A stretch of DNA of 64,000 bases from Herpetosiphon aurantiacus DSM 785 (lineage in GTDB: Bacteria > Chloroflexota > Chloroflexia > Chloroflexales > Herpetosiphonaceae). This document shows, piece by piece, positions 7,771-45,610 of this stretch. The stretch is from positions 633,199 through 697,198 of the forward strand of contig CP000875.1 in the NCBI GenBank assembly GCA_000018565.1. Reading direction: 5' to 3'. The notes below the pieces were generated by a model. The model was not told the DNA's origin. It made no database searches and saw only the letters and a list, made by a program, of their open reading frames with translations. The translations under genes were made by a program, and so were the position numbers. The number at the start of each line of letters is the position of its first letter. The stretch's first letter is position 1.

Positions 7771-7855
7771 ACAAGCCGCCTCCTTTGGGCGGTGGGTGTG
7801 GTTGGGTTAATGGTCGTGTGTGCAGGATTGTTTCAGCCCTGCACACGGTCAATCG

Positions 7856-12960: not shown

Positions 12961-12972
12961 TCTCCCAATCCC

Positions 12973-14413: not shown

Positions 14414-14415
14414 GA

Positions 14416-15649: not shown

Positions 15650-15698
15650 GCGTGTCCTCCTTTGAACGCATTGAATGATTGAAAACTTCTCCGCTCGC

Positions 15699-16784: not shown

Positions 16785-16842
16785 CGGACAAAACTCCTAA
16801 ACAGTATTGATGATTGAATGAATGACGAGGCCTTCGCCCTGC

Positions 16843-17463: not shown

Positions 17464-17465
17464 GA

Positions 17466-18194
17466 TTAACCTCGCTTCGGAAGGCTATAGCCCATCCGTT
17501 GATTGTGAGTGGTGATTGGGTCGTCTTTTTTGGGATTGCCACCACCTTGATGGACAAAGCCCGTCCCCCGCCGTGCAGGGTTGCTATCGATCGTGAGAGC
17601 GGGCATGAATTCACCCCAGTGTTTCTCGGCATAGGCATCGAGTGGGGTTTCCCCGTCGCCATCCTTGACGGTGATGGTGGTCTTGTCGCCCTCGGTTTTG
17701 GTGATAAACGTGACATTGCCCGCTAAGCGCTCCAGCACGCTCGGCTTCCACTGCATCGCCTCAGCAACCGTGCGCATGGTGGCTTGTGTGCGCAACGTGG
17801 CCAGCTCGGTTTGGGCTTGCTCACGCTCGGTCAAGCGGGTGCGCAATTCATCGAGCTGCCCAAGCGCTTGATAGTCCCGCCAGCGCTGCACATCGTCACC
17901 ACTGAGCACCACGGCCCCATCAGGAACACGCTCGCGCAGCTGGCGATTCTGGTCGCGGTACTGATAGTTTTCCTGCATCAGCAGCATCAACGCAGCATCA
18001 GGGCTGCCTTGGCGAGCGATCAGATTGGCAATTTGGCCTGCAATATCGGGTTGGTTGCCGCCACTAGCGGGAGGGTTAGCCGGTGGATTCGCAGGCGGGT
18101 TGGCTGGTGGTGGATTGCCACCGTTGCCACTGCCGGAACCACCGCCACCGTTATCAGCAGTAAACAATTTAACTGAGCGAAAAAAGCGAACCAT
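17466..18194 (-). CDS. Phage scaffolding protein
   Basis: N-terminal Gly-rich region plus (NPPA)x3 repeats, then a long coiled-coil. Located between the portal/MuF genes and the capsid genes. Confidence 0.5.
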   Translation of the reverse strand: MVRFFRSVKLFTADNGGGGSGSGNGGNPPPANPPANPPANPPASGGNQPDIAGQIANLIARQGSPDAALMLLMQENYQYRDQNRQLRERVPDGAVVLSGDDVQRWRDYQALGQLDELRTRLTEREQAQTELATLRTQATMRTVAEAMQWKPSVLERLAGNVTFITKTEGDKTTITVKDGDGETPLDAYAEKHWGEFMPALTIDSNPARRGTGFVHQGGGNPKKDDPITTHNQRMGYSLPKRG

Positions 18195-18208
18195 TGTTGA
18201 TTACTCCT

Positions 18209-19200
18209 CTATGATTGCAATTGGCGTAAGGCATTGACCGTCGTGACCTGCGCGTTTGCGCCCCAGATGCCACCGCTATGCACCGTCGCCAAATCTTCAA
18301 ATTGAAATGCGCCCCGTTGCCACAAGGCGTAGCGCCCTGGGCCAAGCATATCGCGCTGTGTTTTTGCACTCTGCTCCAGAAACCATTGCTTGCCCGTTGG
18401 GATCGCCAGCGGCTCGCGGCCTCTTAAAATTGGCAGTAATGTACATCTGCACTGAGGATGCAACGGCATCATCACGTTGGTCGGATAGACCGTGCCATCG
18501 AGCGCCAAACAGGCCAGACAGGTACGCCGCGTGCCGCGATGCGCATGTAAGCGGCGGCTAAGCCACTCGTTTGATACTGCTGCAACGCAGCCACGCGTGA
18601 TGCTCGAATCGACTGATCACGGGTTACTAACAAGGCATGATTGAGACTGGTTGCTAAGCCATCATTGACCATCATTCGCGCCGTGATGCGCGGGTTTTTG
18701 CCCAATGCAAGGCCACTCAACAGGGCATCGGTCATGGCTTGCGCCGTTTCCGGATAGGCGTTACTCAGCAAGAGCGCCAAGGGATTGTCAGCCCGTGCCA
18801 GCGCGGCAATGTTTTCAAATGCGCCGCTGTTCAACTGCGTGAATGACCCTTGAATCGCGCCGGAATAGCGCAACCACGCCGTGGCCTGCTCCGCGCCCAT
18901 ACTGGCAAAACTCAACTGCTGTGCCTGAATGATCGCGGCGGCATCCGCGTTGTATTTCGCCAGTTCGCGCTGGAGCTGCACCAACAACGCTTGGTAGCGC
19001 TCGTTCGCATACAACTGCGACTCGCTGACCGTTTGCCCATCGGCCTTAGCCTGGCTCATTTGAAACGCCAAGGCTTCCATTTCCGCCTTCAAGGCCGCTT
19101 CGACCGTGCGCCAGCGTTTGGTCAGATCGTCCATCGCGCTCGCGTTCTGGGCCTGAAGCTCAGCACGGAATTGATTGGCAATGGCAACCGCGTCGATCAT
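18209..19200 (-). pseudogene. Phage head morphogenesis protein (SPP1 gp7 / Mu F family) split into two overlapping ORFs in different frames (18472-19200 and 18209-18508)
   Basis: The N-terminal ORF (242 aa) is followed by a 99-aa ORF carrying the family's C-terminal 'HPQCRCTLLP' motif. The two overlap by 37 nt in different frames. This indicates a frameshift mutation or a sequencing error. Confidence 0.45.
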
Positions 19201-20768
19201 TGCGGCTGCTCCAATCCGGTGCTGGCAGCGCCACTATCGAGCCGTGCTTGCTGCATCGCCAAGGCTGCACCTAAGCTTCGGGCGCTGCGAGCCTGCTTTT
19301 CTTCCTGCTCGGCAGCAATGCGGGCTTTCTCGGCATCCACATCTTCAACCTCTATTAAGCTCAAGAACAGGTCGTGACTGATCGCCCCTTTTTCGTAGGC
19401 GGCTAATAAGAAGTTGCGTTCCTCGCTGCTCAAGCTGCCCAGCCACAACCGTGGCGTGACATCCGCCCGCAAGGAATCAAAGGCTTGGGCACGCCCCGCA
19501 AAGTGGGCCGCTAAGGCTAAGGCCGCTTCGAGCACCCAGCGCACCAGTTGCTTCAACGCTGTAGCTGTTGGCCCTAGGGACATCGCAAAATCCAACAATG
19601 CTTGTTTGCGACTTTCGCCACTCGCTACTGCGTCACCACTCAACAGCGCATGCAGTTGCTTGCACTCCTTGAGCATCCGGCTATAGATTGCTGCGTCGGT
19701 GTCAATGAACGTGCCCACGGGAACGGGATCACGCCATTGCACCGATGGGGTGGTGTAGCCCGTGATGCGCTCAATCTGTCCATCTTTTTCGCGCATCGGC
19801 AGCCCGACCAAATTGGTGGTTTTGCCCGGCCCGATGTCATACGGGCGATACACACGCGTTTTTTTGCCCGGGTTGGTTGGATCATCGACCTCATCAAAGG
19901 GCATTTGGGCATTGGTCATCACGCGCTCAACAAATCCGCTAATCACGATGTTGTGTTGGAGCATCGTCAACGTCATATTGAGCGCCTTCTGCATTTGCTG
20001 CATCGGTAACCCGATCAAGGGTTTGCAGGTGATTTCGATCATCAGTAAGTGACCCATGAGCGGCAGCCGCGTTTCTCCGGTAACGGCTTCGCCTTCGAGT
20101 GTGCGCATCACGGTATCGAGGCCATCAAGAAAGGTCACTTCAGCCACTTCCTGTTTCGCGTCGTTGGTGTAGACATACACACCACAGGCCTGCATCGTGG
20201 CCGTGTCGCGGCTCACGCCAGCCTGCTCGGGTGAAAGTCCATCCAACCAAATGAGATTCAAGGCATCGGCCAAACTGGGCTGGCGCTGAATCACGCCGCC
20301 TTCGACAACGGCAGGGGGCACAAATAACCGCAGGACGGCGCGGCCATGCACCACGGCGGTGGCAATGCTTTCTTGTAGGATACCCAGCACATTCCGTTGA
20401 TCCCACCAGCTCGTCATGGCGGCTTCCGCTTCATCGAGCAATGCTTGCTCTTGGGTATTCGGCTGTTCCTCCTCCAGTAATGGACGACGCAGGGCATAGC
20501 TCCATTGAGGTTCCCGCCCGACTGCACCATTCGCATGCCGCTCAATCACCTCGGCAATGACATTGCTGGAAACAAACTCGCGTTGAATACGCGTCATCAC
20601 CTCGGTCGCGCCCTTATCGGTTGATGCTGGAGCGGGGCCAGTCCACGCCGCGCCACCTTGCCAGTGATCGCCATCGCGAAACAGCACCGCGCTTTTGACC
20701 GCTTCCGGCGTGGTTGGCAAGCGTTTTTTGGCGGCTTCAACCGACAAATTGTCAAAGGCTGTTGGCAT
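19197..20768 (-). CDS. Phage portal protein
   Basis: Size about 520 aa, immediately downstream of the terminase large subunit. The ORF track extends to 20843 but overlaps the terL gene; the internal Met 'MPTAFDN' at 20768 directly follows the terL stop. Confidence 0.65.
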   Translation of the reverse strand: MPTAFDNLSVEAAKKRLPTTPEAVKSAVLFRDGDHWQGGAAWTGPAPASTDKGATEVMTRIQREFVSSNVIAEVIERHANGAVGREPQWSYALRRPLLEEEQPNTQEQALLDEAEAAMTSWWDQRNVLGILQESIATAVVHGRAVLRLFVPPAVVEGGVIQRQPSLADALNLIWLDGLSPEQAGVSRDTATMQACGVYVYTNDAKQEVAEVTFLDGLDTVMRTLEGEAVTGETRLPLMGHLLMIEITCKPLIGLPMQQMQKALNMTLTMLQHNIVISGFVERVMTNAQMPFDEVDDPTNPGKKTRVYRPYDIGPGKTTNLVGLPMREKDGQIERITGYTTPSVQWRDPVPVGTFIDTDAAIYSRMLKECKQLHALLSGDAVASGESRKQALLDFAMSLGPTATALKQLVRWVLEAALALAAHFAGRAQAFDSLRADVTPRLWLGSLSSEERNFLLAAYEKGAISHDLFLSLIEVEDVDAEKARIAAEQEEKQARSARSLGAALAMQQARLDSGAASTGLEQPQ

Positions 20769-20781
20769 CGATACCCCTTGT

Positions 20782-22215
20782 TTAGTAGCTATCCCACGAG
20801 CCAGCAATGGCTTCGTCTTCGACTTCCGTTGGTTGACTGGCAACCATGAGAGCGATGGCCCATGCCATCACGAAATCATCGTGATAGCCTGCGGGTGCGC
20901 CTGTCCCGCCGTTCTTCAAAATCCGATAAATCGCTAGTTCATTCAGCGCCGTTTGATTGCGAATTTTTACCAACACATCGCGCAGTGCCGTTGCTAACAG
21001 GTCAATCATTTGTGGCTTGGTCTGGGCGTTGGTCAGCCAGCCTGCTCGCCCATCAAGGCCATACACGATGCGCGTGAATCCGGCCAGCTTCATCGTCGTC
21101 AGTACCGCGTGGCCGTGATTGTTCCGTTCGACCGCAACCGTGGCCCCGTACCCATCCGACAACGCCATCAAGATGCGAGCGTATTCATCCGGTTCCCACT
21201 TGCCGTGGACGCTGACCATTTCCTCCCATGACACTGCGTCGATTAGGGTGGCAGCGCAGAAGTCGCCGTGCTCCAGCCCTTCGGCTACGTCCGCTGCCAG
21301 AATGTAGCGCCGTCCTTGTTGCGGCAATTGATACATCGTTACGCCGTCAAGCTTGTCCAGCGCATCGGGTAACGATTCCGCTGCTAAACCGTCACTCGGT
21401 GTCTGCTGAAGCAACCACGGCATTTTGAACCGTGTGCGCCCTGACACCAAAAAGGCTTCTTGCGCGGTTGAGGGATATTCCTGCCGAACCATATCAAGGT
21501 CGGTATACTCCTCAAGCTGCTCTTGATACCACTGGGCATCACGGGTTGGTCGCGCCCACCATGGCAGAAAAATAGTTTTGAACCGATTCTTGGCACTGAG
21601 TGCCTTGACCCATAATTGATGAAACAGATTGCCAATCCCGTTGGCTGTGGAGAGAACAATCAGTTGGCCGCCGCCGTCAATCGTGGGCTTGAGCGCGGTA
21701 TACAACTGCTTAGCCCAAATCAAGAATCCGGCTTCGTCCAAAATCACGAGCGATGCAGTGAACGAACGCCCTGCCCCTTTGGTCGCGGGCAGTGATTTAA
21801 CCCGACTGCCATTCGCCCATTCCAGTTCGGTCGTGTTGTCCGTCACCAGCGCTGGCGAGGCTTCGCGCATCCAATCGGGTAAGCGTTCATACAACCGTTT
21901 GACCCGATGAAGCATCTCGTCCGCTTCGCCTTGACCTTTACTGAAGATCAGCACCACCTTGCCCGGTTGGAACAGGCAGAGCCACAGGGCATAGGCACAA
22001 CACAACCAGCTAATACCCAACTGCCGCGCCTTCAAGATCAGAATTAGACGCTGAAGCAGAAGCGTCCACAGGACTTCAATCTGCGCAGGCCAGAGCGTAA
22101 ACGGCATATCGCCGCTGCCATCACCAAGACCCTGCGCGTCGTCTATTCGTCCGTAGTTGTGGGTGAAGTAGGCAGGGTCGGCATGGCACTTTGCCAATTC
22201 GACAGCTTTCGACAT
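20782..22215 (-). CDS. Phage terminase large subunit
   Basis: 477 aa, positioned between the terS and portal genes. It has ATPase-like N-terminal and nuclease-like C-terminal acidic motifs (DDFVMAW). The identification rests mainly on synteny. Confidence 0.65.
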   Translation of the reverse strand: MSKAVELAKCHADPAYFTHNYGRIDDAQGLGDGSGDMPFTLWPAQIEVLWTLLLQRLILILKARQLGISWLCCAYALWLCLFQPGKVVLIFSKGQGEADEMLHRVKRLYERLPDWMREASPALVTDNTTELEWANGSRVKSLPATKGAGRSFTASLVILDEAGFLIWAKQLYTALKPTIDGGGQLIVLSTANGIGNLFHQLWVKALSAKNRFKTIFLPWWARPTRDAQWYQEQLEEYTDLDMVRQEYPSTAQEAFLVSGRTRFKMPWLLQQTPSDGLAAESLPDALDKLDGVTMYQLPQQGRRYILAADVAEGLEHGDFCAATLIDAVSWEEMVSVHGKWEPDEYARILMALSDGYGATVAVERNNHGHAVLTTMKLAGFTRIVYGLDGRAGWLTNAQTKPQMIDLLATALRDVLVKIRNQTALNELAIYRILKNGGTGAPAGYHDDFVMAWAIALMVASQPTEVEDEAIAGSWDSY

Positions 22216-22883
22216 TGTTCCTCACGCCACTGTTTTAATTCATCAGCTGCTTGCGCCATCGCCGGACTATCAATCGGAATTGGCGCACCGCCCCTACCCG
22301 TATGCTCAGCGCGATCAACCCACATTGCGTGATACTTGCCTAGTGTGATCAACGCACCTTGTGCGTCGTACAATTCAATCGATTCCCCCTTAGGGCCGAC
22401 CGAGTATTTTTTGATAAGGTGCATCACGCCACGGTGCTCGGCTTTGACTAAGCTGAGATAGGTCGCCGGACGCATGGCCTTTTCTTCAACCTCCTCTAAA
22501 ACAATCTCTTTTGAGCTACCTTTCTTATCAACACTGACTAAAATGCGCCGTTTGATGACTGTTCGCTCTTCTTCGCCAATAAAAAAGAAATCATCCATCG
22601 AGGTGCGAGCCTGCTGTGCGAGCCGTCCCACAATCTCGGTCTTACTAATAATGTCGTCGGCGCGGCGTGCAATCTCGGCCTTAATGTTAGGTTTTGTCAG
22701 GTTTTCTGATCCGATGCTCCGCGCTGAGCGTTCCGCATACCCAGCCCGAATTGCCGCTTTCGTGGCATTGAAATCCACGAGATATTCATCGACAAAGCGC
22801 CGTTGTCGCGTGGTCAATGGTTTTTCTGCTTCGGGATTGGTCATATTGGCCTGCCTCGGGTTGGGATTAAGACTTTGAGACAA
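22143..22883 (-). CDS. Phage terminase small subunit
   Basis: 'TTRQRRFVDEYLVDFNATKAAIRAGYAERSARSIGSENLTKPNIKAEI' is the classic Terminase_2/TerS signature. Confidence 0.75.
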   Translation of the reverse strand: MSQSLNPNPRQANMTNPEAEKPLTTRQRRFVDEYLVDFNATKAAIRAGYAERSARSIGSENLTKPNIKAEIARRADDIISKTEIVGRLAQQARTSMDDFFFIGEEERTVIKRRILVSVDKKGSSKEIVLEEVEEKAMRPATYLSLVKAEHRGVMHLIKKYSVGPKGESIELYDAQGALITLGKYHAMWVDRAEHTGRGGAPIPIDSPAMAQAADELKQWREEQCRKLSNWQSAMPTLPTSPTTTDE

Positions 22884-27992: not shown

Positions 27993-28988
27993 CTAGGAAT
28001 GTTGCTCAATAAATTCGCTTACTTTGGTAAACCATTGTTTGGTCAGTAGATCCTTTTCGCGCATGACAACCCGTGCCATTTTAATGATGGTTTCGGCAGC
28101 CTCAAGTTTCTGGGGAATACCTTGTAATTCTTCCCATTGTTGAATATAGCGGCTAATTTGGCTGACAAATTGATTGGGACGCAAACGGTTAAAATCAGCC
28201 AAAAATTGCTCTAAGGCATCTTGTTTGGGGTCGCGTGGTGGTGAGGCCAACTTCAATCGACCATAACCACTAGAGGTTTTAGCTCCAACACCATATTCCA
28301 GCAAGGCTTTTTCCAGAATTGCAAACGCTGCTGTGACCCACGCTTGATCGCCACCGATGGCAAATAAATAGCTGCCTGTTGCACTCAGGAAGGCCACCGG
28401 ATTGGGCGAATCGAAGTCGGTGGGCGCTTGTAAATTGCCTTGCTGATAGGTCATATGATGCGGAGTCATCACATCAATCGCGAGCGGTTGGCTGCTATTG
28501 GGAATATACAAGGCATCAAAGAAGGTCAGATAGCCAGCGCTTTCAGGATGCCCAAACATCGTTTGGTAGGCATTCAACGGCTTTTCAGCTTGGGTTTCTG
28601 AACCTTTAGTCCAATCGTCGCCAAGCTGTTGCCGTGCATAGGCAGCTACCAAGCCTTTGATCGCGCTGCCTGGAATATAGGGCACACCATAGGTATGATG
28701 CAAGCAAATCGAGGTTTCGATTGGGCTGGTATTACCTAAACCGACAATCATGCGCCCTTGAACTTCGGCCTTGCGAAAAGTTGCTCCAGCCTGCTCAAGG
28801 TTCGCTGCCCAACGATTATAAAAATGTGTATACAGGGCTGGTATTTGTAGGCCTGCCACTTGTTCAACCAAGCTAGCTTTGGCTTTGCTCTCATCATCAG
28901 CGCTGCCTTCGGTTAAAAATCGATTGAGCCATAAGCCCGCGTGGGTATTTGGGGCAGGTTTGATCTGGGCTAGTGCTGTTCTACGCAT
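27993..28988 (-). CDS. cmr6: Type III-B CRISPR RAMP protein Cmr6 (Cas7 family)
   Basis: 'HAGLWLNRF' N-terminal motif. G-rich loop 'GVPYIPGSAIKGLV'. C-terminal 'TSSGYGRL'. The ORF track extends to 29051, but an internal Met at 28988 avoids overlap with cmr5. Confidence 0.8.
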   Translation of the reverse strand: MRRTALAQIKPAPNTHAGLWLNRFLTEGSADDESKAKASLVEQVAGLQIPALYTHFYNRWAANLEQAGATFRKAEVQGRMIVGLGNTSPIETSICLHHTYGVPYIPGSAIKGLVAAYARQQLGDDWTKGSETQAEKPLNAYQTMFGHPESAGYLTFFDALYIPNSSQPLAIDVMTPHHMTYQQGNLQAPTDFDSPNPVAFLSATGSYLFAIGGDQAWVTAAFAILEKALLEYGVGAKTSSGYGRLKLASPPRDPKQDALEQFLADFNRLRPNQFVSQISRYIQQWEELQGIPQKLEAAETIIKMARVVMREKDLLTKQWFTKVSEFIEQHS

Positions 28989-29424
28989 TATTTTCCCCGC
29001 TATCTGACTCTGTGGCCTCACTCGCCTCCAAATCAAGGATCGATTGGGCAAAGCGTTTGAACCAAACCAACACTGCTAGTGTTTGCCGCGTCAAGCGCAT
29101 ATATTCGGTGATTTGGGCAGTGCGGCTCTGGTCAAGTAATTCTTGGGTATTTTGGTAGCCTAAAACATCGGCCAAATCTTCAAGAAACTGTTTTTGTTCG
29201 GCTTTTTTGCGGGTGCTGGCAAAATGCAATGCTTGGACAAGCCCAGCACTCCGAATCATGATTGGTAAGGTAAATGCTAAATTTCCATAGCGTGTGCGTA
29301 TATCTTTTGATTCACCGCTATAGGCGTTGGCCTTGGCATAAACCTTGGTTGCATAACGTTGCTCAAGGGTTTGACGTTGGCTCATTGACATTAGCGATCT
29401 CCTTGCGCTATAGTAAGTTGACAT
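28981..29424 (-). CDS. cmr5: Type III-B small subunit Cmr5 (Cas11 family)
   Basis: 147 aa, all-helical. 'LPIMIRSAGLVQALHF' matches the Cmr5 core motif. Confidence 0.7.
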   Translation of the reverse strand: MSTYYSARRSLMSMSQRQTLEQRYATKVYAKANAYSGESKDIRTRYGNLAFTLPIMIRSAGLVQALHFASTRKKAEQKQFLEDLADVLGYQNTQELLDQSRTAQITEYMRLTRQTLAVLVWFKRFAQSILDLEASEATESDSGENNA

Positions 29425-30227
29425 AAACCACAGCCAACTGTTGCATTCCCACCTAATTGGATGATTCCCTGATTGGCTACTTCGATAATTGCAGTTATGA
29501 CTTGATCGCGATTGGCACTGCGTTTTTGGTCGTTGATCGCGACAATTCCGGCCAAAATTGTTTCAGCAGGTAGGGCTTCTTCATACCAAAGCCCGCCTTT
29601 GGTTACAACCTTGGTATTGTCATCAAGCCGAATGCGAGCGGTAATTTCGGTTGCGGTGGTCACCAAGAAATTAAAAATCTCATCGGGTACAATACATAGT
29701 CGTTCTTGAAGAATCGTTTGCCAATCGGGTTTATCAGGAAACAATTGCTTAGCCAGCCAGCCAGCCCAAGCATCAGCTCCTGGTGTTGCTTCAAGGTCAA
29801 GATCTTCAAGATAGACTTTTTGTTGGTAGCTTAATACGCTATTTTGGCTAATTAAGGCTAGCTCACTGCGTTTAATTTCTGGCAGCCAAAGATTGCTGGT
29901 TTGGGCCTCACGGGCAAATCGGCTGAGTACATACGGCGAGGTTACCCAAGCAAACGTGCCATACAAACTGCGAATTGGCAAAAGTAGCAAGCGCTGATCA
30001 GCAAAAATTGCATCGCCAGCTTGCTCAACATCCCCAAACAGCTGCTTTTTAAGGCTTTCTGAGGCTGGTGAAACATCGCGAATCACGCCTTTGATTGATG
30101 AACCTGGGATATAAGGCAGATTGGTGGCTTTTTCACGGGCAATTGGCAAGTCAATCACATCGACGCTTTGACCAGTGCCCGCATGAATTGGCGAAAGTGC
30201 ATGCACAAAAATCACATGAGTTTGCAT
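29391..30227 (-). CDS. cmr4: Type III-B backbone RAMP Cmr4 (Cas7 family)
   Basis: 'LSPIHAGTGQSVDVIDLPIARE...LPYIPGSSIKGVIRD': the G-rich loop and Asp-containing beta1-alpha1 loop typical of Cmr4/Csm3. Confidence 0.8.
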   Translation of the reverse strand: MQTHVIFVHALSPIHAGTGQSVDVIDLPIAREKATNLPYIPGSSIKGVIRDVSPASESLKKQLFGDVEQAGDAIFADQRLLLLPIRSLYGTFAWVTSPYVLSRFAREAQTSNLWLPEIKRSELALISQNSVLSYQQKVYLEDLDLEATPGADAWAGWLAKQLFPDKPDWQTILQERLCIVPDEIFNFLVTTATEITARIRLDDNTKVVTKGGLWYEEALPAETILAGIVAINDQKRSANRDQVITAIIEVANQGIIQLGGNATVGCGLCQLTIAQGDR

Positions 30228-30229
30228 TC

Positions 30230-31549
30230 TTATTCCTCTATTGTTTCAAGAAAGCTGGTAATAATACTGGGATTGGTAAGCATAGGGCGGCGCTGTTTAT
30301 CAACGATTGTTCTAGCCTGACTCTCTGATACATCAATGATTACTGCGGCAGCAGTGATTCGGCGGTTTTTGATAATTGCCTGCCGACCATCGAGGGTGCT
30401 GCCTTCAAACACTGCGATTAATCCAAAAAGCTGACCAGTTGAGGCAACTGGTTTGAGCAACATTGGGCTGGCAAAACGGTCACCTTTTTGTTGGCTGAAT
30501 TCATGGTTTGCCTGGAGCCGCAATTCTGAGTCGCCTGGATCATCACTATCTTTGAAATGGAAAATAATCGGTAAGCCAAATTCTCCACGCGGGAAGGCAT
30601 CGATCGTACTGAGTGGTTGTTCATGAAGTCTTGAACGTTGACGAGTTAATCGTCGCAGCGCATCTGGCTCGGGCCAACGGCTACGACCTGGGCGGTTTGG
30701 CTGATTGCCATCATTGCGCTGTTGACGAAATTCCTTATAACATCTGAGCAAATCGGCCCAAATATTCAATGCCGTTTGATTGGGCTTGGGCTTGATCAGG
30801 CGTAATTGCATAGTTGGTGCAAGATGCGGTACCCCATTTGGCCAATAGCTACGGTTGCCAATAATCGCCCTGATGTGTTGTTGTAATTCGGCTTTATTGG
30901 CAAATGCAAAGCGATGATTGGCTTTGTCAAGCGCTTGCAACACCCCAAAACCACGTCGGGTACGTGCCCCAATGCCGCCAAAGGTTTGCCAAGCCCACAA
31001 CACTTTTTCCAATTCTTCACGTTGTTCGGCAGATTTTAAGTGAATCGTTAATTTAAATTCAATGCCTTCGCGCACACTGGCATTTTGCTTATCTTGCAAG
31101 GGAAAGGCGGAATAGCCGTAGGGCGAGTTCATGGCCGAAATTTTGACTTCTTGCCCATTTTTGGCGATTACTCGGAATTGGCTGCCACTATTGATTACCT
31201 CTATCTCAACCTGGACTGCTGATGCGCCGCTTGATTGACTATCGGCAGCCTTGCCAAAGAGTGCCGACTCACGGGCAAACATATCTGCTAATAATGCATC
31301 ATGCGATTGAGGCTGATGACTACCGCCAAAACAGGCTCGCCACCAAAAACGTAGTTGGCCGCGAATACTACTTGGGCGAATCAGAAAATTGGAATCATTT
31401 TCACCCGCCTTAACCCCGCCACCCATCAAAGGCGTAATTAAACGATAATTGCGGATGATGGGTTCAATTGGAGGCTTGTGATTTTCAATTTTTTTTACAT
31501 CTGGACAGTTAACTGAAGATTCAGCTGAGGGTTTACGATTAAACATCAT
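30230..31549 (-). CDS. cmr1: Type III-B RAMP Cmr1 (Cas7 family, two RRM-like halves)
   Basis: 'ITPLMGGGVKAGENDSNFLIRPSSIRGQLRFWWRA' is the Cmr1 signature. Second G-rich loop 'GGIGARTRRGFG'. Confidence 0.75.
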   Translation of the reverse strand: MMFNRKPSAESSVNCPDVKKIENHKPPIEPIIRNYRLITPLMGGGVKAGENDSNFLIRPSSIRGQLRFWWRACFGGSHQPQSHDALLADMFARESALFGKAADSQSSGASAVQVEIEVINSGSQFRVIAKNGQEVKISAMNSPYGYSAFPLQDKQNASVREGIEFKLTIHLKSAEQREELEKVLWAWQTFGGIGARTRRGFGVLQALDKANHRFAFANKAELQQHIRAIIGNRSYWPNGVPHLAPTMQLRLIKPKPNQTALNIWADLLRCYKEFRQQRNDGNQPNRPGRSRWPEPDALRRLTRQRSRLHEQPLSTIDAFPRGEFGLPIIFHFKDSDDPGDSELRLQANHEFSQQKGDRFASPMLLKPVASTGQLFGLIAVFEGSTLDGRQAIIKNRRITAAAVIIDVSESQARTIVDKQRRPMLTNPSIITSFLETIEE

Positions 31550-32736
31550 GCTAGCTCCTGTAAATAGCCATCATTCCATATGCCCAACACTGCCAATCCA
31601 AAGCCATCTTTGGCAGCTTGCTCGCTGCTACTGATGTTGCTAAACCAGAGTTGGCGTGCCCATTGCTCAATCTCAGCATCGCTGCCAGTAAGCTCAACAA
31701 ACAGCACAGTGCCGGCGGCAGCAAGGCGGCGGGTTGCTTTTGGGCGTTGGAGGCGTAAATCCCAACCTGAAACATATTCGGGCCGAGGGTTTACCACGGC
31801 TTTAATAGTGGCTGTCATCGGCAAGCCAAAAGTTGGTAAATGTTTGGGATAAAAGCCTGCATCCCAAATGGCTGGTGTGAGCAGGATAATCCGACAATGT
31901 TTGGTTTGGACAATCGCGGCTAGAATGCTTGGCTCAATTGTTTCAATGCCAGCGGCAGTACCACTTGGAACTCGATACCATTCAACTAACCTACGTTCAG
32001 CACCTAAACTGGCAACTGCCGGATCGATTGGCGTGCTGCTCCATAAACCTAGGCCATAGCCAGCCTCAAGCGATTGAAAACTCAGGCCTTGGGTTTGGAA
32101 TAATTGGCCATCCTCAGCGATTTGGGTGCTTGGCTTAATCCCTACATGCGTTCGGGTATCGCCCTCTAAGTCGAGCATTTGGCCAGCAGCTCGCTGCTGC
32201 TCAAGATCGAATGGCTGGATCGGTGGATTGATTAACCATGGTAAAAACAGCCTTTCCCAATTCCAAAAGCGTGGTAGGTTTGCGGGGGCTTTGCCTTTGG
32301 TGTGCTGTTGACTCCCAACTAAGCTAAACCTTGGTTGATCAGGCTGCTGCCCAAGCACAAGATCAGTTTGCTCAGTCGGGAAATAGCGTGGGTCGAGTGG
32401 TTGTAAGCGATAACAGGTAACATTTGCCCCATCCTGACGAATCAAGGCATCGGCAGGGATTGCAACAAATGGAATCAACAAATCAACGGTTTCTTTGAGC
32501 AGAATCGGGCCACGTACCTGCATCGCTAAGAGATTGGTATATTCAGGATCGCTTAATTTGGCGGAAAAATTGTAGTTGGCTTTCACTCCAGCCCGTGCCC
32601 GAAAGCCGCCAACCGTGACCGACGGTGGTGGGAAACTGAGGCTTTTGGCGCGGGCACCTGGCTGGTTTTCAAATGGGCGACCATCGGCAATTACCAAGGA
32701 GTTGAATGGCTGAATTAGCCAGAGATCAAGTGTCAT
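31546..32736 (-). CDS. cmr3: Type III-B Cmr3 (Cas5-group RAMP)
   Basis: N-terminal 'LIQPFNSLVIADGRPFENQPGARAKSLSFPPPSVTVGGFRA' is the classic Cmr3 start. 4-nt overlaps with its neighbours indicate an operon. Confidence 0.8.
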   Translation of the reverse strand: MTLDLWLIQPFNSLVIADGRPFENQPGARAKSLSFPPPSVTVGGFRARAGVKANYNFSAKLSDPEYTNLLAMQVRGPILLKETVDLLIPFVAIPADALIRQDGANVTCYRLQPLDPRYFPTEQTDLVLGQQPDQPRFSLVGSQQHTKGKAPANLPRFWNWERLFLPWLINPPIQPFDLEQQRAAGQMLDLEGDTRTHVGIKPSTQIAEDGQLFQTQGLSFQSLEAGYGLGLWSSTPIDPAVASLGAERRLVEWYRVPSGTAAGIETIEPSILAAIVQTKHCRIILLTPAIWDAGFYPKHLPTFGLPMTATIKAVVNPRPEYVSGWDLRLQRPKATRRLAAAGTVLFVELTGSDAEIEQWARQLWFSNISSSEQAAKDGFGLAVLGIWNDGYLQELA

Positions 32737-34619
32737 AATTGAGGTACTCCTTGGGGCTGAGTCTTTTCAAATAAGGCCTGAACATTGGCTAACTCCCGTG
32801 CCACTAAATTCATGGCGATAAAATCGCGCAGATATTGGTCTGCTTGATCTGAGTTTGATGAATGACTCGAACAATAGCCAATAATGTTTTGGAGCAGATT
32901 AATCACATCAGCAGCCAAAAATGTAGCTTCGCCTGCAGACTGAATTTGTTTGCGCTTCAAAATTCGCAGCGTTTCATGTTCAATAATCTTGAGCGTTTGT
33001 TGAAGTTCTGTTCGATCATTGATAAGCCCAAAGTCAAAGCGCTTGAGTAGCTCATCAAGCTCAAAAATAAAGCCATCAGGAATTGTTTGTTGGCAATGCA
33101 GCTCAACTAATTTGGTTAAGTGTTGATAAAATTCTGTATCCCACTGACCAACAATGGTTTTATCGGAGCCATTACGTTTGCTCAAAATAATTGCTAAGGC
33201 ATTACGCGGCTTTTTGGCTAGCTTCTCGGCCTTCCGCGCCAATTGAATTGAATCCTGCAAGGCTTCAAGATGATGCACAATTGCCACCCCAACCGAGAGT
33301 GTTGGTGTGCTAACAGCCTGTTGCTCGGCTAGTGGTTGCATATATTCGATAAAGAGATCGCTGATTTTTTTGGTAGCTGCTAAAAGTGTATGTAATGGAA
33401 GAAGCGCTAGTACATCATCGCCACCAGCATAAATGACTGCTGCTTGGTAATCATTTTCTAGAATTTGAGCTGCATCTTTAGCAAATGTTGTAACAACCTT
33501 GGATAAATCGCGATGAATTTGTACATCGCTAATCGAATCAATTAAATTGCCCATTTTATCGCCATCGGCAGCAATAATCGCATAATAGGGATTTGGGCGT
33601 TGTTTGGCATAAGCAGTTATAAAATCTTCCAAATAGCCGCGTGCTTGCTTAATAATTACAGTATTCAAATCAGTATTGGCGAAATCTTCCCCTAAGCGCG
33701 ACTCAAAAACCAATGAACCATCAAAAAAATCGCGGTTAGTATTTTCGCTTGGAAAGAGGGCAATTCGATCAAAGCGCTGAACTCGTGGTAAATATTCAGT
33801 GATGCGATAGCCTGTGCTACGTAGATTATTGATATAGCGTTCCCAACCTTGGCGAGCTAAAGTGCTTTGATTAACATGTTCAGCAAATGCCAGCGCAGCC
33901 ATATGCGAAGTACTTGGGAATCCGTCTAAACCTTTTGGATAGGCTTGGTCTAAATCTTGTGGTTTGAGCATACGCTTGAGTAAATCGACGGCTGAGAGAT
34001 TTTCGCCCGATTTTGCTCCATTGGCTATTAGCGTGTGCCAGCCATCGAGCGACGATTTATCCGAGCGCTTCATATTTTGGGGGTCTTGTTGCCAATCAAT
34101 TAAGCCAAAGTTGCGGGTATTTTTACGTGCTGCATAGAGCTGGTAAAGCTTTTTGCGTTGTTGCGCATAGTGCTGGTCATCCGGTAAATCAACATATACA
34201 TACTGAAACTCAAATAAATCTTTTAATTGTTTAATAAGCTGCTGTTCACGCTGCTCTTCCGACAGGCCTTCGAGCCAATTGATCTGTTTAGTTTTCAGCA
34301 GAATGTTTACGAATTGGTCAATTTCTTGATCAAAGGCTGCCTTTGCGTGGGTAATGGCTGCTTGGGCATCGGGCACGATCACCAAAATTTGGTTACTATA
34401 GCTGATTCGTTCAGTACTTGGATCGCTATTTTCGGCTTCGGGCGAGGGCAAACTATCGCCAGTTGGAAAGATCAAGCCTTCGCGTGGCAGGGTTTGGGCG
34501 ACCTTTTTGGCAAGATGACTGAGCACCCACGAACCAAACCAGACATCGCGGGTGCGCCGAGCCTGCTCGATAAATTCCTGAACTGGCCCTAGGGCGATCA
34601 ACAACAGCGATCGATTCAT
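32733..34619 (-). CDS. cmr2: Cas10/Cmr2 lacking the N-terminal HD nuclease domain (Cmr2dHD-like) with an intact GGDD cyclase/palm motif
   Basis: N-terminal 'ALGPVQEFIEQARRTRDVWFGSWVLSHL' matches the Cmr2 motif just after the HD domain. 'VIYAGGDDVLALLP' is the GGDD palm motif. The protein is 628 aa with no H-D motifs and few cysteines. Confidence 0.8.
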   Translation of the reverse strand: MNRSLLLIALGPVQEFIEQARRTRDVWFGSWVLSHLAKKVAQTLPREGLIFPTGDSLPSPEAENSDPSTERISYSNQILVIVPDAQAAITHAKAAFDQEIDQFVNILLKTKQINWLEGLSEEQREQQLIKQLKDLFEFQYVYVDLPDDQHYAQQRKKLYQLYAARKNTRNFGLIDWQQDPQNMKRSDKSSLDGWHTLIANGAKSGENLSAVDLLKRMLKPQDLDQAYPKGLDGFPSTSHMAALAFAEHVNQSTLARQGWERYINNLRSTGYRITEYLPRVQRFDRIALFPSENTNRDFFDGSLVFESRLGEDFANTDLNTVIIKQARGYLEDFITAYAKQRPNPYYAIIAADGDKMGNLIDSISDVQIHRDLSKVVTTFAKDAAQILENDYQAAVIYAGGDDVLALLPLHTLLAATKKISDLFIEYMQPLAEQQAVSTPTLSVGVAIVHHLEALQDSIQLARKAEKLAKKPRNALAIILSKRNGSDKTIVGQWDTEFYQHLTKLVELHCQQTIPDGFIFELDELLKRFDFGLINDRTELQQTLKIIEHETLRILKRKQIQSAGEATFLAADVINLLQNIIGYCSSHSSNSDQADQYLRDFIAMNLVARELANVQALFEKTQPQGVPQL

Positions 34620-34656
34620 TGCAACACTCCTCTAGGTAAACGGGGAACTCTGCGCT

Positions 34657-34686
34657 ATTATAACAATGCAACTCCATGTTAGGCAA
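34657..34686 (-). promoter_or_regulatory. Candidate sigma-70-type promoter of the cmr operon with an extended -10
   Basis: On the minus strand: TTGCCT, 18 nt spacer, TGtTATAAT. Located about 40 nt upstream of the cmr2 ATG, which is preceded by GAGGAG. Confidence 0.35.
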
Positions 34687-34940
34687 GAGTGGTTTTTGGT
34701 TTAGTTCGAGGTGCTTGTACGATGGATGATCTAGAAGATCGCTTACAGGAAATTAAAGATAGGCGGCGCGTTCACAGAAATACTCTTCGTAAGCTTGAAC
34801 CTCAAAAAAGCAGGCTTGGAGTAAATATAGATATACAGCTAGAAAATTTCTTAATACAACAAAAAGAAGCCGATTCAATGTTATGAATTTATCAATGATC
34901 GAGCTGAATATATTCCTTCGTGCTTGATTAAACAAAATTA

Positions 34941-34972
34941 AAGCTTAGCCCGCAAATCAAACCATGATCTGC
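34941..34972. terminator. Terminator hairpin downstream of the lipoprotein gene
   Basis: agcccgcagatcatggtttgatttgcgggct forms a perfect 8-bp GC-rich stem. Confidence 0.5.
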
Positions 34973-34983
34973 GGGCTGTTGGT

Positions 34984-35745
34984 TTACTTGGGGCTAATTG
35001 TCCAATCGCCATCGGCCTGCACATCCCACAAGCATGGGCCTTCAGAGAATTTGACAATCGCAGAGCCATCAACTGTGCCAATCTCGTTTTGGGCGTAATC
35101 CATACCGCCTTGGCAAGTGACTTGCACGATAAAATTGCTATCGCCATTGTGGGTGAAATTGAATGGAATTGGCCCTTCTTGGTTGGGCATAAATAGGCCG
35201 CTGACCAGATCACCAGTGCCGCTCAGGCCATCGGCGGCGGTAGCTTCCAAGCCAATTGGCACAATTTCGGCTGTCCACTCGCCATCGGCATCAATCTCCA
35301 AAAAGCTGCTGCTATCGCCATACAACACTCGCGAACCAGCATAACGCCCAATTTCGTTGACCAAATAGCTTTCATCGCCCTCAGCGTTATAGGCTTTGAC
35401 GATAAAGTTGCGTCGCCCAGTATGGGTCAATTTAATAATGCTAACTGCGCTGGGTGGCATAAATGCATCAGTCACAGTTTGGCCAACGCCGCTCAGCACA
35501 ACTGGCTCAGGAATTGGCGTGGCCGTCGCGGTTGGCCGTGGCGTGCGAGTTGGCTTGGGCTTAGCGGTTGGACGAGGTGTGTTAGTTGGCCGTGGCGTGC
35601 GCGTCGGTTTGGCCGTTGGCTCATCGGTTGGCTCGGCTTGGGCTACTTGGGCCACACTTGCCGCCGATTCGATTTGTTGCCCAGTCGTTTGACCACAAGC
35701 CAGCAATAGCAAACCGATCAGCATAAAACCAAGAAAACGTTGCAT
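34984..35745 (-). CDS. Secreted lipoprotein with a Pro/Thr-rich linker (function unknown)
   Basis: Signal peptide plus lipobox 'LLLACGQ'. (PTRTPRPT)n linker. Beta-rich C-terminal domain. Confidence 0.55.
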   Translation of the reverse strand: MQRFLGFMLIGLLLLACGQTTGQQIESAASVAQVAQAEPTDEPTAKPTRTPRPTNTPRPTAKPKPTRTPRPTATATPIPEPVVLSGVGQTVTDAFMPPSAVSIIKLTHTGRRNFIVKAYNAEGDESYLVNEIGRYAGSRVLYGDSSSFLEIDADGEWTAEIVPIGLEATAADGLSGTGDLVSGLFMPNQEGPIPFNFTHNGDSNFIVQVTCQGGMDYAQNEIGTVDGSAIVKFSEGPCLWDVQADGDWTISPK

Positions 35746-35817
35746 CGATGAACTCCTTCAATACTTCAACTGATTGTTGGAGTTACTTTAGCAACACCCT
35801 AGGGCACAAATGTGGAT

Positions 35818-36849
35818 TTAATCGTTACGATAGACAAATTGATTATGCCAGTTAAGCGCAATCGGATTAGGATACAAGTGCGCTTGGTTGGGCAATTGGA
35901 TTGATTGGCGGGTGAAGGCGAGCAGCGTTTGGTTAGCAGGTGGTTGATCATCGACAAGCGGTGAAATTTGTATTTTATAGCTTGGTGTAATCGTTAATAA
36001 ACCTTGATCGAATACCCAATGATGCAATCCACACAATGCAACCCCATTGCGCGGATCATCGTTATAACTCCGACTCCACGGAATGATATGAGCCGCCTCG
36101 GCTGCACTCCGCCCTTCGGGGGTAATAACTCTTATGCCACAAATGGCACAGCAATAATCATAACTAGGCACGACAATTTGGCGAAATGCGCTGGAACGTA
36201 CTTCAACTTGGTATGGCGCGTCGGTTGCTGGAATTTCGCGAAACATGCGCTGGCTTTGCTCAATTAACAGTTTGCTATAGTCGAAAATTTCAGTATTGAT
36301 TTGGGCAATCATGCCGAGGGCAGTCCATAATTCCGGCGTAAAATACTGTTGAATCAAGCTTTGGCGAAGTTGTGTGCGGGCAAATGGCTGTTGTAACAAC
36401 TCAAATAATGCTTGATCAAGCGTTGCCCCAAGCACAAGTTGATTTAATTGATTGATTGTTTTGATATCTTTTGTTGCTGCCAATCGTTGCTGCATACCTG
36501 GTTGGGCTTGCAAATGCCAAAATCCCTCACTTTTAAGGTAGAAAAATGGCTGAATCGGATTGGCAAACTTTGTTGAATCAAAAATAATGCGCCAATATCG
36601 GTCAAAGGTTTCAAGCAAAAACTCCGAATACTCGATAAAATTATGCGTGAGTGTACCAACCGAAATCAGATCGCTAACCGCAAGTAGCATCAATGGTTTA
36701 TAGGGCGCACGAAAATGGGTGCTTTCAGGCCAAGCTTGTGATGGCGATAGCTTAAGTTTTTCGAAGGCTCGCTGATATTGTGCAAGCATACATACTCCCA
36801 AAGCTCTAAAATCTCTATTTAAGGAATTACTATGCAGATTGAAGTGCAA
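35818..36849 (-). CDS. HNH-family nuclease (HNH_2 / COG3440-like predicted restriction endonuclease) with an uncharacterised N-terminal domain
   Basis: 'YDYCCAICGIRVITPEGRSAAEAAHIIPWSRSYNDDPRNGVALCGLHHWVFDQG' carries the C..C / H..H / N / H-H HNH core. Confidence 0.65.
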   Translation of the reverse strand: MHFNLHSNSLNRDFRALGVCMLAQYQRAFEKLKLSPSQAWPESTHFRAPYKPLMLLAVSDLISVGTLTHNFIEYSEFLLETFDRYWRIIFDSTKFANPIQPFFYLKSEGFWHLQAQPGMQQRLAATKDIKTINQLNQLVLGATLDQALFELLQQPFARTQLRQSLIQQYFTPELWTALGMIAQINTEIFDYSKLLIEQSQRMFREIPATDAPYQVEVRSSAFRQIVVPSYDYCCAICGIRVITPEGRSAAEAAHIIPWSRSYNDDPRNGVALCGLHHWVFDQGLLTITPSYKIQISPLVDDQPPANQTLLAFTRQSIQLPNQAHLYPNPIALNWHNQFVYRND

Positions 36850-44827: not shown

Positions 44828-45610
44828 ATGAGTGATCGCCCAAATGAAGATAAGAAATTGCACGACCCAAAAGCTACTGTGCAGTTAACCGCTGACGATT
44901 TGGCCGCCATGCGGGCCGAATTGCAACAAGAAAAAGATAAAGCGAATCAATTTGCAACTGCCCGTTTGAGCGAGGCTGATATCGCTCCTGCTACCAACAA
45001 GAAGTTGGAAAATCCTTATGCCACGGTGCAATTGAACCCTGAGGAGATGGCTGCACTACGTGCCGAAGCTCAACGGGTCAAGGCTGAAGCTCAAGCTGCT
45101 CAGGCAGCCCAAGCTGCACCAGTCGCACCAGCACCAGATAATATTAGCTCAATGCGCGGCGGGGCGGTTGCTAACACGCCACCAGCACCAGCAGCACCCC
45201 AGTCGTTCCCTGATCAAACGGTGATTATGAGTCCTGGCCAAGCGCGGGCGCAGTATGGCAATGCCCCAGTTGATCAATCGTATGCGCCACCAGCACAGCA
45301 GCAATATGCACCGCCAGCGCAGCAGCAACAATATGCACCACCAGCGCAACAACAGCAATATGCGCCGCCACCGCAGCAATACGCGCCACCAGCACAGCAG
45401 CAATATGCACCGCCACCGCAACCAGGCTATGGCCAGAACTACCAAAATGTCCAGCAAACCTATAATCCACCAGCGCAAACTGGCTTTTCAGCGCCACCAG
45501 CACCGCTCAATACCAATGAGAACTTTTTTCAAAAGTATGGGGTGTATTTGCTGATTGGGTTTGGGGCAATGTTAATCGTTGCAGCAATTTTGTTATTAGT
45601 GATTGGCTAA
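44828..45610 (+). CDS. Pro/Gln-rich repeat protein with a C-terminal transmembrane anchor
   Basis: (QQ)QYAPPAQQ decapeptide tandem repeats. C-terminal 'GVYLLIGFGAMLIVAAILLLVIG'. Confidence 0.5.
   Translation: MSDRPNEDKKLHDPKATVQLTADDLAAMRAELQQEKDKANQFATARLSEADIAPATNKKLENPYATVQLNPEEMAALRAEAQRVKAEAQAAQAAQAAPVAPAPDNISSMRGGAVANTPPAPAAPQSFPDQTVIMSPGQARAQYGNAPVDQSYAPPAQQQYAPPAQQQQYAPPAQQQQYAPPPQQYAPPAQQQYAPPPQPGYGQNYQNVQQTYNPPAQTGFSAPPAPLNTNENFFQKYGVYLLIGFGAMLIVAAILLLVIG

Follow-up and report, generated by a model that had tools for sequence, protein, structure and literature searches.

A type III-B (Cmr) operon that stands alone on a chromosome, as one in Herpetosiphon aurantiacus DSM 785 does, raises the question of whether it is an unusual orphan module or an ordinary one served by components encoded elsewhere. 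The operon occupies positions 27993-34619 on the minus strand of the 64,000-nt stretch of DNA analysed here (the window), and consists of six tightly packed genes encoding Cmr2/Cas10, Cmr3, Cmr1, Cmr4, Cmr5 and Cmr6. All six ORFs, in the order cmr2-3-1-4-5-6, are matched by curated HMMs (Table 1), in agreement with the preliminary description, whose quoted Cmr motifs are all present in the sequences. The TIGR01888 match of Cmr3 (1e-17) falls under the NCBIfam cut-off. Cmr4 has an Asp (D26, inside the motif VIDLPIARE) at the catalytic position for RNA cleavage. For cmr5 and cmr6 the table lists the likely products, starting from ATG at 29391 and from 28988 according to gene calls (for cmr5, on identical contigs); the longest ORFs begin at 29424 and, with TTG, at 29051. 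The 4-nt overlaps described earlier for the whole operon occur only at cmr2/cmr3 and cmr3/cmr1, the other junctions being, in order, a gap of 2 nt and overlaps of 1 nt and 8 nt, and the span given for the module (27993-36849) takes in, besides the minus-strand operon, two unrelated genes for a lipoprotein and an HNH nuclease. The Cas10 is 100% identical to ABX03227.1/WP_012188135.1 and already bears the name Cas10/Cmr2 in GenBank, RefSeq and UniProt; the locus is an ordinary, previously annotated type III-B interference operon.

Table 1. Features of the cmr locus and its surroundings, numbered by position in the window.
Feature	Coordinates	Strand	Size	Details
cmr6 (RAMP)	27993-28988	-	331 aa	TIGR01898 7.4e-40
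cmr5 (Cas11 small subunit)	28981-29391	-	136 aa	PF09701 8.6e-24
cmr4 (Cas7 backbone RNase)	29391-30227	-	278 aa	TIGR02580 3.6e-70
cmr1 (RAMP)	30230-31549	-	439 aa	TIGR01894 1.6e-14; RAMPs 2.3e-24; motif SSIRGQLRFWWRA
cmr3 (Cas5 family)	31546-32736	-	396 aa	PF09700 2.1e-52, full profile
cmr2/cas10	32733-34619	-	628 aa	TIGR02577 1.5e-54; Cmr2_N and Cas10-Cmr2_palm2; PADLOC Cas10 2.9e-83
Sigma-70-like promoter	34657-34686	-		TTGCCT, 18-nt spacer, TG-extended TATAAT; 38 nt upstream of cmr2 ATG
Filler at deletion site	34701-34869	+	~170 bp	No homology to other species in alignment
SAVED-domain effector gene relic	34870-34941	+	72 bp	Last 23 codons (PIQCYEFINDRAEYIPSCLIKQN) and stop
GC-rich hairpin	34948-34976	.		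GCCCGCAAATC...GATCTGCGGGC; between relic stop and lipoprotein gene stop
PT-rich lipoprotein gene	34984-35745	-		Upstream of cmr2
HNH nuclease gene	35818-36849	-		Nuclease domain; NF045808 2e-39; PF26340

The Cas10 lacks an HD domain, because the protein starts directly at the Cmr2_N motif; aligned to P. furiosus Cmr2, it begins where the deltaHD construct begins. Cmr2 homologues measure 456-684 aa among the 120 listed of more than 2000 matches, and the best sequence match with a solved structure, PDB 9arw_A ("Type III-B CRISPR-associated protein Cas10/Cmr2", 612 aa, 2.6e-76), is HD-less too and aligns from the N-terminus, but has GGED in place of the GGDD of H. aurantiacus. The cyclase residues are intact (D352, D354 and G399-G400-D401-D402), and GGDD is invariant in an alignment of 24 homologues, which bears out the earlier reading of an HD-less Cas10 with its cyclase motif kept. 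Genes for CARF_Card1, Cas_APE2256, SAVED, Csx3, NE0113 and Cas6 lie beside related Cmr operons, which ties this Cas10 clade to cyclic oligoadenylate (cOA) signalling. The combination of an HD-less, GGDD-bearing Cas10 with a type III-B operon is also that of the Bacteroides fragilis Cmr system, which makes SAM-AMP and signals to CorA (PMC10600005), and the H. aurantiacus enzyme might be supposed to do the same. This is highly improbable: the B. fragilis enzyme, which carries D70 and E151, is associated with CorA and NrN, whereas the D70 position is occupied here by N76, an Asn at the ATP-acceptor position that is invariant within the clade and aligns to N300 of P. furiosus; scans of the neighbours and tblastn found no CorA or NrN gene at the locus, and the relatives carry the CARF, SAVED and Csx3 genes.

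No CRISPR array was detected in the window by TRF, a direct-repeat finder, Rfam or a custom k-mer array detector that recovered the T. thermophilus arrays as a control. Pfam and PADLOC scans found no cas6, cas1, cas2, CARF or SAVED gene among the neighbours, and tblastn with 1112 ORFs from 80 related Cmr loci returned, outside the operon, only matches to generic receiver, kinase and HTH domains. An array or cas gene just outside the window was also looked for, and none lies within 10 kb past either end. Arrays, cas6, adaptation genes and intact cOA receptors (CARF/SAVED) are thus absent from the ~84 kb made up of the window and 10 kb on each side, and the crRNAs must come from elsewhere, as had been surmised. 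According to a published report (PMC3368417), the genome carries 11 CRISPR arrays, along with a cas cluster located on a plasmid. The preliminary description had regarded the orphan layout as noteworthy; however, according to the 2025 CRISPR classification (PMC12669027) arrays are absent from most III-B loci and Cas6 acts in trans in most type III systems, and the T. thermophilus Cmr locus, whose complex is biochemically characterised, has the same layout with an HD-less Cas10, so that the H. aurantiacus configuration is not unusual.

The single unexpected feature of the locus is a newly noticed detail, a 72-bp relic of a SAVED-domain effector gene. The earlier statement that the 64 kb hold no array, cas6, cas1/cas2, CARF or SAVED gene stands for intact genes, but it missed this remnant. 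The relic has no start codon, its frame being closed 15 nt upstream, and it matches residues 425-453 of the H. gulosus SAVED protein (tblastn 79%, E 4.7e-8; DNA identity 88%); the C-termini of P0157-P0159 read PIQCYEFMNDRNPAEYIPSCLIKQN, compared with PIQCYEFINDRAEYIPSCLIKQN in the relic. The intact gene is divergent from cmr2 in a metagenomic relative with 88% identity and adjoins the lipoprotein gene in H. gulosus, and it is also absent from two other Herpetosiphon species examined. These comparisons indicate that a SAVED effector gene once stood divergently upstream of cmr2 and was deleted in H. aurantiacus, and the presence of the relic marks the absence of the effector as a secondary loss. 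The filler at the deletion site, which holds a 54-aa ORF (34722-34886), shows no likeness to the N-terminal motif of SAVED (0.6% probability in hhalign) and has no Pfam match. The best Foldseek match to a model of the H. gulosus SAVED protein is the cA3-activated effector TIR-SAVED (PDB 7qqk; E 6.7e-10, 430 aligned columns), in which, as in the model, an alpha/beta domain at the N-terminus precedes SAVED; the model has an additional N-terminal helical hairpin. The model is of low confidence (mean pLDDT 64, ~50 in the SAVED part) and its TM-score against 7qqk is only ~0.4, so the resemblance of the lost effector to TIR-SAVED may be taken as a lead, not an assignment.

The spacer upstream of cmr2 also contains a sigma-70-like promoter sequence. 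A consensus scan of the region gave a total count of promoter-like sites not above chance, but this site is kept in 5/5 Herpetosiphon versions though the rest of the spacer diverges. The GC-rich hairpin is conserved in a four-way alignment and likely acts as a bidirectional terminator splitting the lipoprotein/HNH unit from cmr.

The preliminary description had put forward the HNH nuclease and the PT-rich lipoprotein as candidates for a non-canonical Cmr accessory or effector. Both genes do lie directly upstream of cmr2 on the same strand in 4/4 Herpetosiphon species, and one of the two products, the HNH protein, has a nuclease domain. Their homologues, however, are confined to the syntenic Herpetosiphon loci and occur in 0/80 other Cmr loci, the flanking housekeeping genes are equally syntenic, and the dN/dS of the two genes is below that of the cmr genes. 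Besides the hairpin after the lipoprotein gene, a convergent SAVED-p125 gene pair stands between that gene and cmr2 in relatives. The HNH protein matches ScoMcrA-type enzymes, which combine a sulfur-binding domain with HNH and act alone; it is a ScoMcrA-like type IV restriction enzyme, in which no domain for sensing cOA was detected. A role for either neighbour in the Cmr module is accordingly most doubtful, and their conservation reflects genus-level synteny alone. The cryptic prophage mentioned earlier as adjoining the module is a phage-like cluster, unrelated to it, that was inserted downstream of housekeeping genes that are conserved.

Whether the module is still alive is a separate matter. 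Loss of the SAVED gene with only a relic left, the absence of cas6 (which directly follows cmr6 in the nearest relative, L095), the lack of an array within ~84 kb and the failure of two candidate receptors to find a homologue in H. aurantiacus could all mark a dead module turning into a pseudogene cluster. Against such decay, the six ORFs are intact and syntenic in H. llansteffanensis, H. geysericola and H. gulosus as well as H. aurantiacus, with dN/dS of 0.12-0.29 for all cmr genes and an equally constrained cyclase domain (0.14-0.32), figures that are rough because dS is near saturation (0.7-1.5). They point to purifying selection on the cmr genes in four species, despite the effector deletion. 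The catalytic residues are invariant, the promoter-like site is conserved, and array-less III-B loci normally work with components in trans (PMC12669027); we therefore consider decay unlikely. A module under selection might still be effector-less, protecting by RNA cleavage alone or regulating host genes in a genome without a cOA receptor. This reading, for which we see a small chance, accords with the loss of the cognate SAVED gene here and its absence from two other species, and with the lack of an H. aurantiacus homologue when a Herpetosiphon CARF-HTH protein and the SAVED effector were used as queries. These queries covered two receptor families only, though, the genome has more cas loci (PMC3368417), and one would not expect the cyclase residues to be invariant and constrained if signalling served no purpose.

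We thus hold with good confidence that the operon forms a type III-B interference module, carried on the chromosome and inherited vertically, of the same kind as T. thermophilus Cmr. Its function is most likely crRNA-guided RNA cleavage and cOA synthesis, with crRNAs and perhaps receptors provided in trans. By analogy with type III biology, a Cas6 encoded elsewhere would cut crRNAs from distant arrays in the genome, and Cmr1-6 would assemble on them into a complex that base-pairs with invader transcripts, which Cmr4 would cut at 6-nt intervals. Target binding would turn on the Cas10 cyclase to produce cyclic oligoadenylate, and the missing HD domain predicts no Cas10 DNase activity. Since the cognate SAVED receptor is gone, any signalling would have to pass through a putative receptor encoded elsewhere; otherwise protection would come from RNA cleavage alone.

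Among known systems, VmeCmr is likewise type III-B with an HD-less Cas10, on account of which its defence depends on cOA signalling (PMC8682760); it differs in being prophage-encoded with a NucC effector in the locus, whereas the H. aurantiacus module is chromosomal, syntenic across species and effector-less at the locus. The same cmr2-3-1-4-5-6 cassette is found in the metagenomic loci L095/L096 (Cas10 48% identical) and L101 (Cas10 N-terminus 88% identical) and in H. gulosus, the latter two also having the promoter region and chromosomal neighbours in common with H. aurantiacus. All of these keep a gene for a ~455-aa SAVED protein divergent from cmr2, of which only the relic is left here; in L095 the gene is accompanied by cas2, cas6 and an FGE-sulfatase protein, and in L101 and H. 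gulosus its companion is a helical protein of 125 aa. The T. thermophilus HB8 TtCmr system (pTT27 TTHB160-165) has a CRISPR array ~4.6 kb upstream, unlike the H. aurantiacus locus, and the Herpetosiphon lineage differs in having had the divergent SAVED gene. In both, the gene order is identical and cas6, cas1/2 and a CARF gene are missing from the operon; the Cmr4 proteins share 45-46% identity, and the HD-less TtCmr Cas10 (584 aa) is 34% identical, aligned from residue 5. TtCmr, whose Cas10 has no HD domain, cleaves RNA and synthesizes cOA with no DNase activity (PMC8376896).

Six closely spaced ORFs on the minus strand, identified by ORF calling in the window, constitute a type III-B cmr operon in the order cmr2-3-1-4-5-6; their profile matches and the coordinates of the other features are collected in the table. 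Curated profiles from NCBIfam, Pfam and PADLOC recognise all six products, and the motifs quoted in the preliminary description are all found in the ORFs. The 4-nt start/stop overlaps described there exist at two junctions but not at the others, and the range assigned to the operon, 27993-36849, covers the six cmr genes but also spans two unrelated upstream genes. In Cmr4, residue 26 is an Asp, which lies in GQSVDVIDLPIAREK within the motif VIDLPIAREK; we take D26 to be the target-RNA cleavage residue, equivalent to D26 of Pyrococcus furiosus Cmr4. Cas10 is 100% identical to ABX03227.1 (WP_012188135.1, UniProt A9AVY9), whose public record names it type III-B Cas10/Cmr2, and the locus is therefore already annotated in databases. 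A literature search found no paper devoted to this H. aurantiacus Cmr locus. Megablast of the locus against Escherichia coli genomes gave zero matches, and a HIP1-type cyanobacterial origin was rejected (three sites versus two expected).

Features discussed in the text (window positions unless a retrieved contig is named)
Feature	Position	Strand	Details
Type IIG restriction-methyltransferase, tail	124-384		
GmrSD type IV restriction gene	463-2169	-	low-GC island, 463-4379
OLD-family AAA_15/TOPRIM nuclease	2253-4379	-	low-GC island, 463-4379
Phage-like module	7856-22883	-	tape measure 7856-11947; major head 15699-16784
Phage-like module, terminases		-	large 20782-22215; small 22143-22883
cmr operon	27993-34619	-	six ORFs
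Cas10/Cmr2		-	TIGR02577 1.5e-54, 185.7 bits vs cut-off 79.4; PADLOC Cas10 2.9e-83; Pfam Cmr2_N PF12469 and Cas10-Cmr2_palm2 PF22335, both over cut-off
Cmr3 (Cas5)		-	PF09700 2e-52, 179 bits vs Pfam cut-off 21; NCBIfam 61 bits, under cut-off 100
Cmr1 (RAMP)		-	TIGR01894, over NCBIfam cut-off
Cmr4 (Cas7)		-	TIGR02580 3.6e-70, over NCBIfam cut-off
Cmr5 (Cas11)	likely start 29391	-	136 aa (gene calls, identical contigs); PF09701, also over NCBIfam cut-off
Cmr6 (RAMP)	likely start 28988	-	331 aa (gene calls, identical contigs); TIGR01898 7.4e-40, over NCBIfam cut-off
54-aa ORF in deletion site	34722-34886		
SAVED relic	34870-34941	+	72 bp
PT-rich lipoprotein gene	34984-35745	-	
HNH gene	35818-36849	-	HNH_2 4.6e-13; NF045808 2e-39, 135 bits vs cut-off 180
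260-aa ORF	44828-45610	+	zero family matches
Degenerate tandem repeats in 260-aa ORF	45281-45420		units of 21-27 nt
Two tandem Fic/DOC-domain ORFs	57097-57908	+	132 and 138 aa, 4-nt overlap
HTH_11-WYL-WCX regulator gene	L092 7000-7968		about 4 kb past right window end
~55-aa helical motif	L095 505-3827; L098 221-1984; L100; L101		
Second Cmr locus, H. llansteffanensis	L009/L010 (NZ_PUBZ01000011.1) 2717-12255		Cas10 37% identical

In an alignment with 24 homologues, every Cas10 protein starts at the Cmr2_N motif GPVQxFIxxARR, and the profile built from these homologues matches the P. furiosus Cmr2 deltaHD crystal construct from its very N-terminus and the HD-less Thermus thermophilus Cmr2 from residue 4. 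Judged from these alignments, the N-terminal HD domain is absent, as had been claimed. The GGDD motif (G399-G400-D401-D402), which had been described as retained, is invariant in the 24 homologues, as are the first metal-binding DxD residues D352 and D354 and N76, the last of which aligns with P. furiosus N300, the ATP-acceptor position. This set of residues predicts an ATP-acceptor, cOA-type cyclase. SAM-AMP-making Cas10s possess an Asp at the position equivalent to N76 (D70 in Bacteroides fragilis; this and the roles of the cyclase residues are taken from PMC10600005); the window protein departs from this type in having Asn and not an acidic residue there. Cas10s of the B. fragilis type are further marked by an acidic residue at the E151 position and by linked CorA and NrN genes. 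For the solved structure PDB 9ARW, a type III-B Cas10/Cmr2, a literature search gave no usable paper. No CorA gene was detected by Pfam and PADLOC scans of the neighbours or by tblastn of the window with the ORFs flanking related Cmr operons.

No CRISPR array was found in the window by Tandem Repeats Finder, a repeat finder, Rfam or a k-mer chain detector, the last of which does recover those of T. thermophilus and of 23 related loci. Scanning of identical contigs revealed no array or cas gene within 10 kb past either window end, and Pfam and PADLOC scans of the neighbours gave no cas6, cas1, cas2, CARF or SAVED gene. When a wider net was cast by tblastn of the window with 1112 ORFs from 80 related Cmr loci, the matches outside the operon were confined to receiver, kinase and HTH domains. 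The view of the operon as an orphan with neither array, cas6 nor cas1/cas2 thus holds across about 84 kb by array detectors, domain scans and tblastn. According to the H. aurantiacus genome paper, the genome has 11 CRISPR arrays, and plasmid pHAU01 carries a CRISPR-cas cluster (PMC3368417). As expected from the family, the Cmr proteins would load crRNAs cut by a trans-acting Cas6 from arrays at other sites, the complex would bind complementary transcripts for cleavage by Cmr4, and Cas10 would then produce cOA, the Cas10 DNase step being absent.

In H. llansteffanensis, H. geysericola and H. gulosus the cmr cassette is found at the equivalent chromosomal position, with genes for a HEAT-repeat protein, a response regulator, the HNH protein and the lipoprotein on one side and PNPOx, ArsR-AHSA1 and DinB genes on the other. 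The HNH protein and the PT-rich lipoprotein had been suggested as non-canonical accessories of the Cmr complex. For these two and for two unknown proteins, homologues are confined to the syntenic Herpetosiphon loci, and 80 other Cmr loci contained none. A GC-rich hairpin lies past the end of the lipoprotein gene, and cmr2 has its own conserved promoter-like site; both neighbours are therefore rejected as accessories. By its profile matches, including a faint one to PF26340 (sulfur-binding domain), the HNH protein resembles ScoMcrA-type (type IV) restriction enzymes. The module had also been placed next to a cryptic prophage. Phage-like structural genes are indeed present, but they lie beyond the conserved DinB gene, where H. 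llansteffanensis and H. gulosus have no such cluster; it is an independent insertion. No integrase or replication genes of the phage-like element were seen within the window.

Various genes flank related Cmr operons. Downstream are found CARF_Card1 (11 members), Cas_APE2256 (8), Card1 nuclease (7) and SAVED (3) proteins, together with five Cas6 and two proteins matching Cas_Cas6_C; upstream are NE0113, Csx3 and Cas6, seven of each. These flanking genes thus tie the Cas10 clade of the window firmly to cOA signalling. H. llansteffanensis has a second, paralogous Cmr locus, beyond which come genes for a 437-aa MJ1674-like protein and for a CARF-HTH protein of the HFX_2341 type; in several other Chloroflexi loci, cmr6 is followed by a homologue of the 437-aa protein. 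Homologue searches returned no H. aurantiacus counterpart of the CARF-HTH protein or of the SAVED effector described below.

The claim that the window has no CARF or SAVED gene stands for intact genes, but beside the effector genes one 3' piece of a SAVED gene, 23 codons long, is left. In the nearest relative outside Herpetosiphon, the metagenomic locus L095 (Cas10 48% identical to that of the window), cas2, a gene for a 455-aa SAVED protein and one for an FGE-sulfatase protein lie on one strand and cmr2-3-1-4-5-6 plus cas6 on the other. A search with the L095 SAVED protein returned only six proteins, one of them from H. gulosus, in which the SAVED gene sits at a contig end adjoining the lipoprotein and HNH genes, and cmr2 opens another contig, the two contigs being BAABRU010000031 and BAABRU010000033. 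The adjacency of SAVED and cmr2 is settled by the metagenomic scaffold L101, which has codons 1-150 of a cmr2 88% identical to that of the window, followed by a 183-bp spacer with the same promoter and then, on the opposite strand, the SAVED gene and a gene for a 125-aa protein. The relic in H. aurantiacus encodes PIQCYEFINDRAEYIPSCLIKQN*, lacks a start codon, is preceded by a stop at a distance of 15 nt, and matches the SAVED C-terminus PIQCYEFMNDRNPAEYIPSCLIKQN (tblastn E 4.7e-8, 88% DNA identity). The DNA past the relic aligns at 96% with H. gulosus sequence beyond the 125-aa gene, so that, by these alignments, H. aurantiacus has lost the entire 125-aa gene together with some 1.3 kb of SAVED. 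The deletion site is filled by about 170 bp of unrelated DNA with a 54-aa ORF; this ORF was rejected as a remnant of the SAVED N-terminus (hhalign probability 0.6%, zero Pfam matches).

Intact SAVED copies are present in L095, L101 and H. gulosus. The structural model of the H. gulosus protein, which is of low confidence (mean pLDDT 64), comprises a helical hairpin, an alpha/beta domain and the SAVED region, and it comes closest to 7qqk, a TIR-SAVED effector activated by cA3 (E 6.7e-10); this likeness is a lead only. The SAVED proteins, the 125-aa protein, which has two tandem copies, and the FGE-sulfatase protein beside SAVED in L095 share a helical motif of about 55 aa at the N-terminus (L..YQ.NL..LE.Q.A.FGG...AP..I.NQ). 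From its distribution the motif looks like a homotypic adaptor joining the cOA sensor to partner proteins, and it may resemble the so-called effector-associated domains. To judge from the intact relatives, the SAVED protein, the 125-aa helical protein and the FGE-sulfatase protein would make up a little-studied effector set with a common N-terminal helical module.

The SAVED effector is kept in H. gulosus and in the 88%-identical metagenomic strain and is absent from H. aurantiacus, H. llansteffanensis and H. geysericola. The relic makes the loss direct only for H. aurantiacus; neither alignment nor tblastn showed a relic in H. llansteffanensis or H. geysericola, for which we infer the loss. 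Four species have all six cmr genes intact. In pairwise comparisons dN/dS, rough because dS is nearly saturated, is 0.12-0.29 for the cmr genes versus 0.03-0.16 for their neighbours, and, as roughly estimated, 0.14-0.32 for the Cas10 cyclase domain, which is under the same degree of constraint as the remainder of Cas10. Intact genes and these ratios argue against decay of the module. Purifying selection still acts on the cmr genes, the cyclase domain among them. That Herpetosiphon offers a natural series in which an HD-less III-B module has lost its only cognate cOA receptor strikes us as improbable. If this were true and the genome held no other receptor, the module would run without a known effector arm, acting solely through the cleavage of RNA or signalling to a receptor of an undescribed kind. 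The 72-bp relic and the intact copies in close relatives date an effector loss, and SAVED-bearing and SAVED-less strains or species provide a matched pair for the role of an HD-less Cmr without a receptor. The relic is a modest, testable curiosity, and the little that it adds concerns evolution.

When H. llansteffanensis is compared with H. geysericola, the cmr and HNH genes have a higher dS (0.5-1.0) than flanking housekeeping genes (0.36-0.44), and along cmr2 it varies from 0.3 to 2.0 (cassettes of the window, L007 and L008). This pattern points to mosaic recombination in the defence cassette or to an exchange of its alleles. At the left end of the window, a low-GC (32-40%) island with restriction and nuclease genes continues into the adjoining DNA (L093/L094), where Replic_Relax, DUF3102 and a ThiF-JAB-E2 trio are found farther left; it has the look of a defence island carried by a mobile element. 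Elsewhere in the window are two short Fic/DOC-domain ORFs and a 260-aa ORF whose repeats code for a Q/P/A-rich stretch. The WYL-type regulator gene past the right end is over 30 kb away from cmr and shows no sign of a connection with it.

The preliminary description is correct in its observation and in the core of its interpretation; it overrated the rarity of the locus. According to the 2025 classification, most III-B loci are array-less and most type III systems rely on a trans-acting Cas6 (PMC12669027). More than 2000 Cmr2 homologues were retrieved, with lengths of 456-684 aa among the 120 matches listed, and of 18 related loci flanked on each side by 5 kb or more, 9 are without an array. 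The best-studied relative, the III-B Cmr system of T. thermophilus HB8 (TtCmr), has the identical order cmr2-3-1-4-5-6 and an HD-less Cas10 of 584 aa with 34% identity to that of the window, and its operon likewise lacks cas6, cas1/2 and a CARF gene. TtCmr is described as targeting RNA and producing cOA but having no DNase activity (PMC8376896). The array-less, HD-less Cmr layout is thus not unusual, and the operon is an annotated member of the commonest, well-known kind of III-B system; as a CRISPR locus it offers nothing new, its biochemical model TtCmr being well studied.
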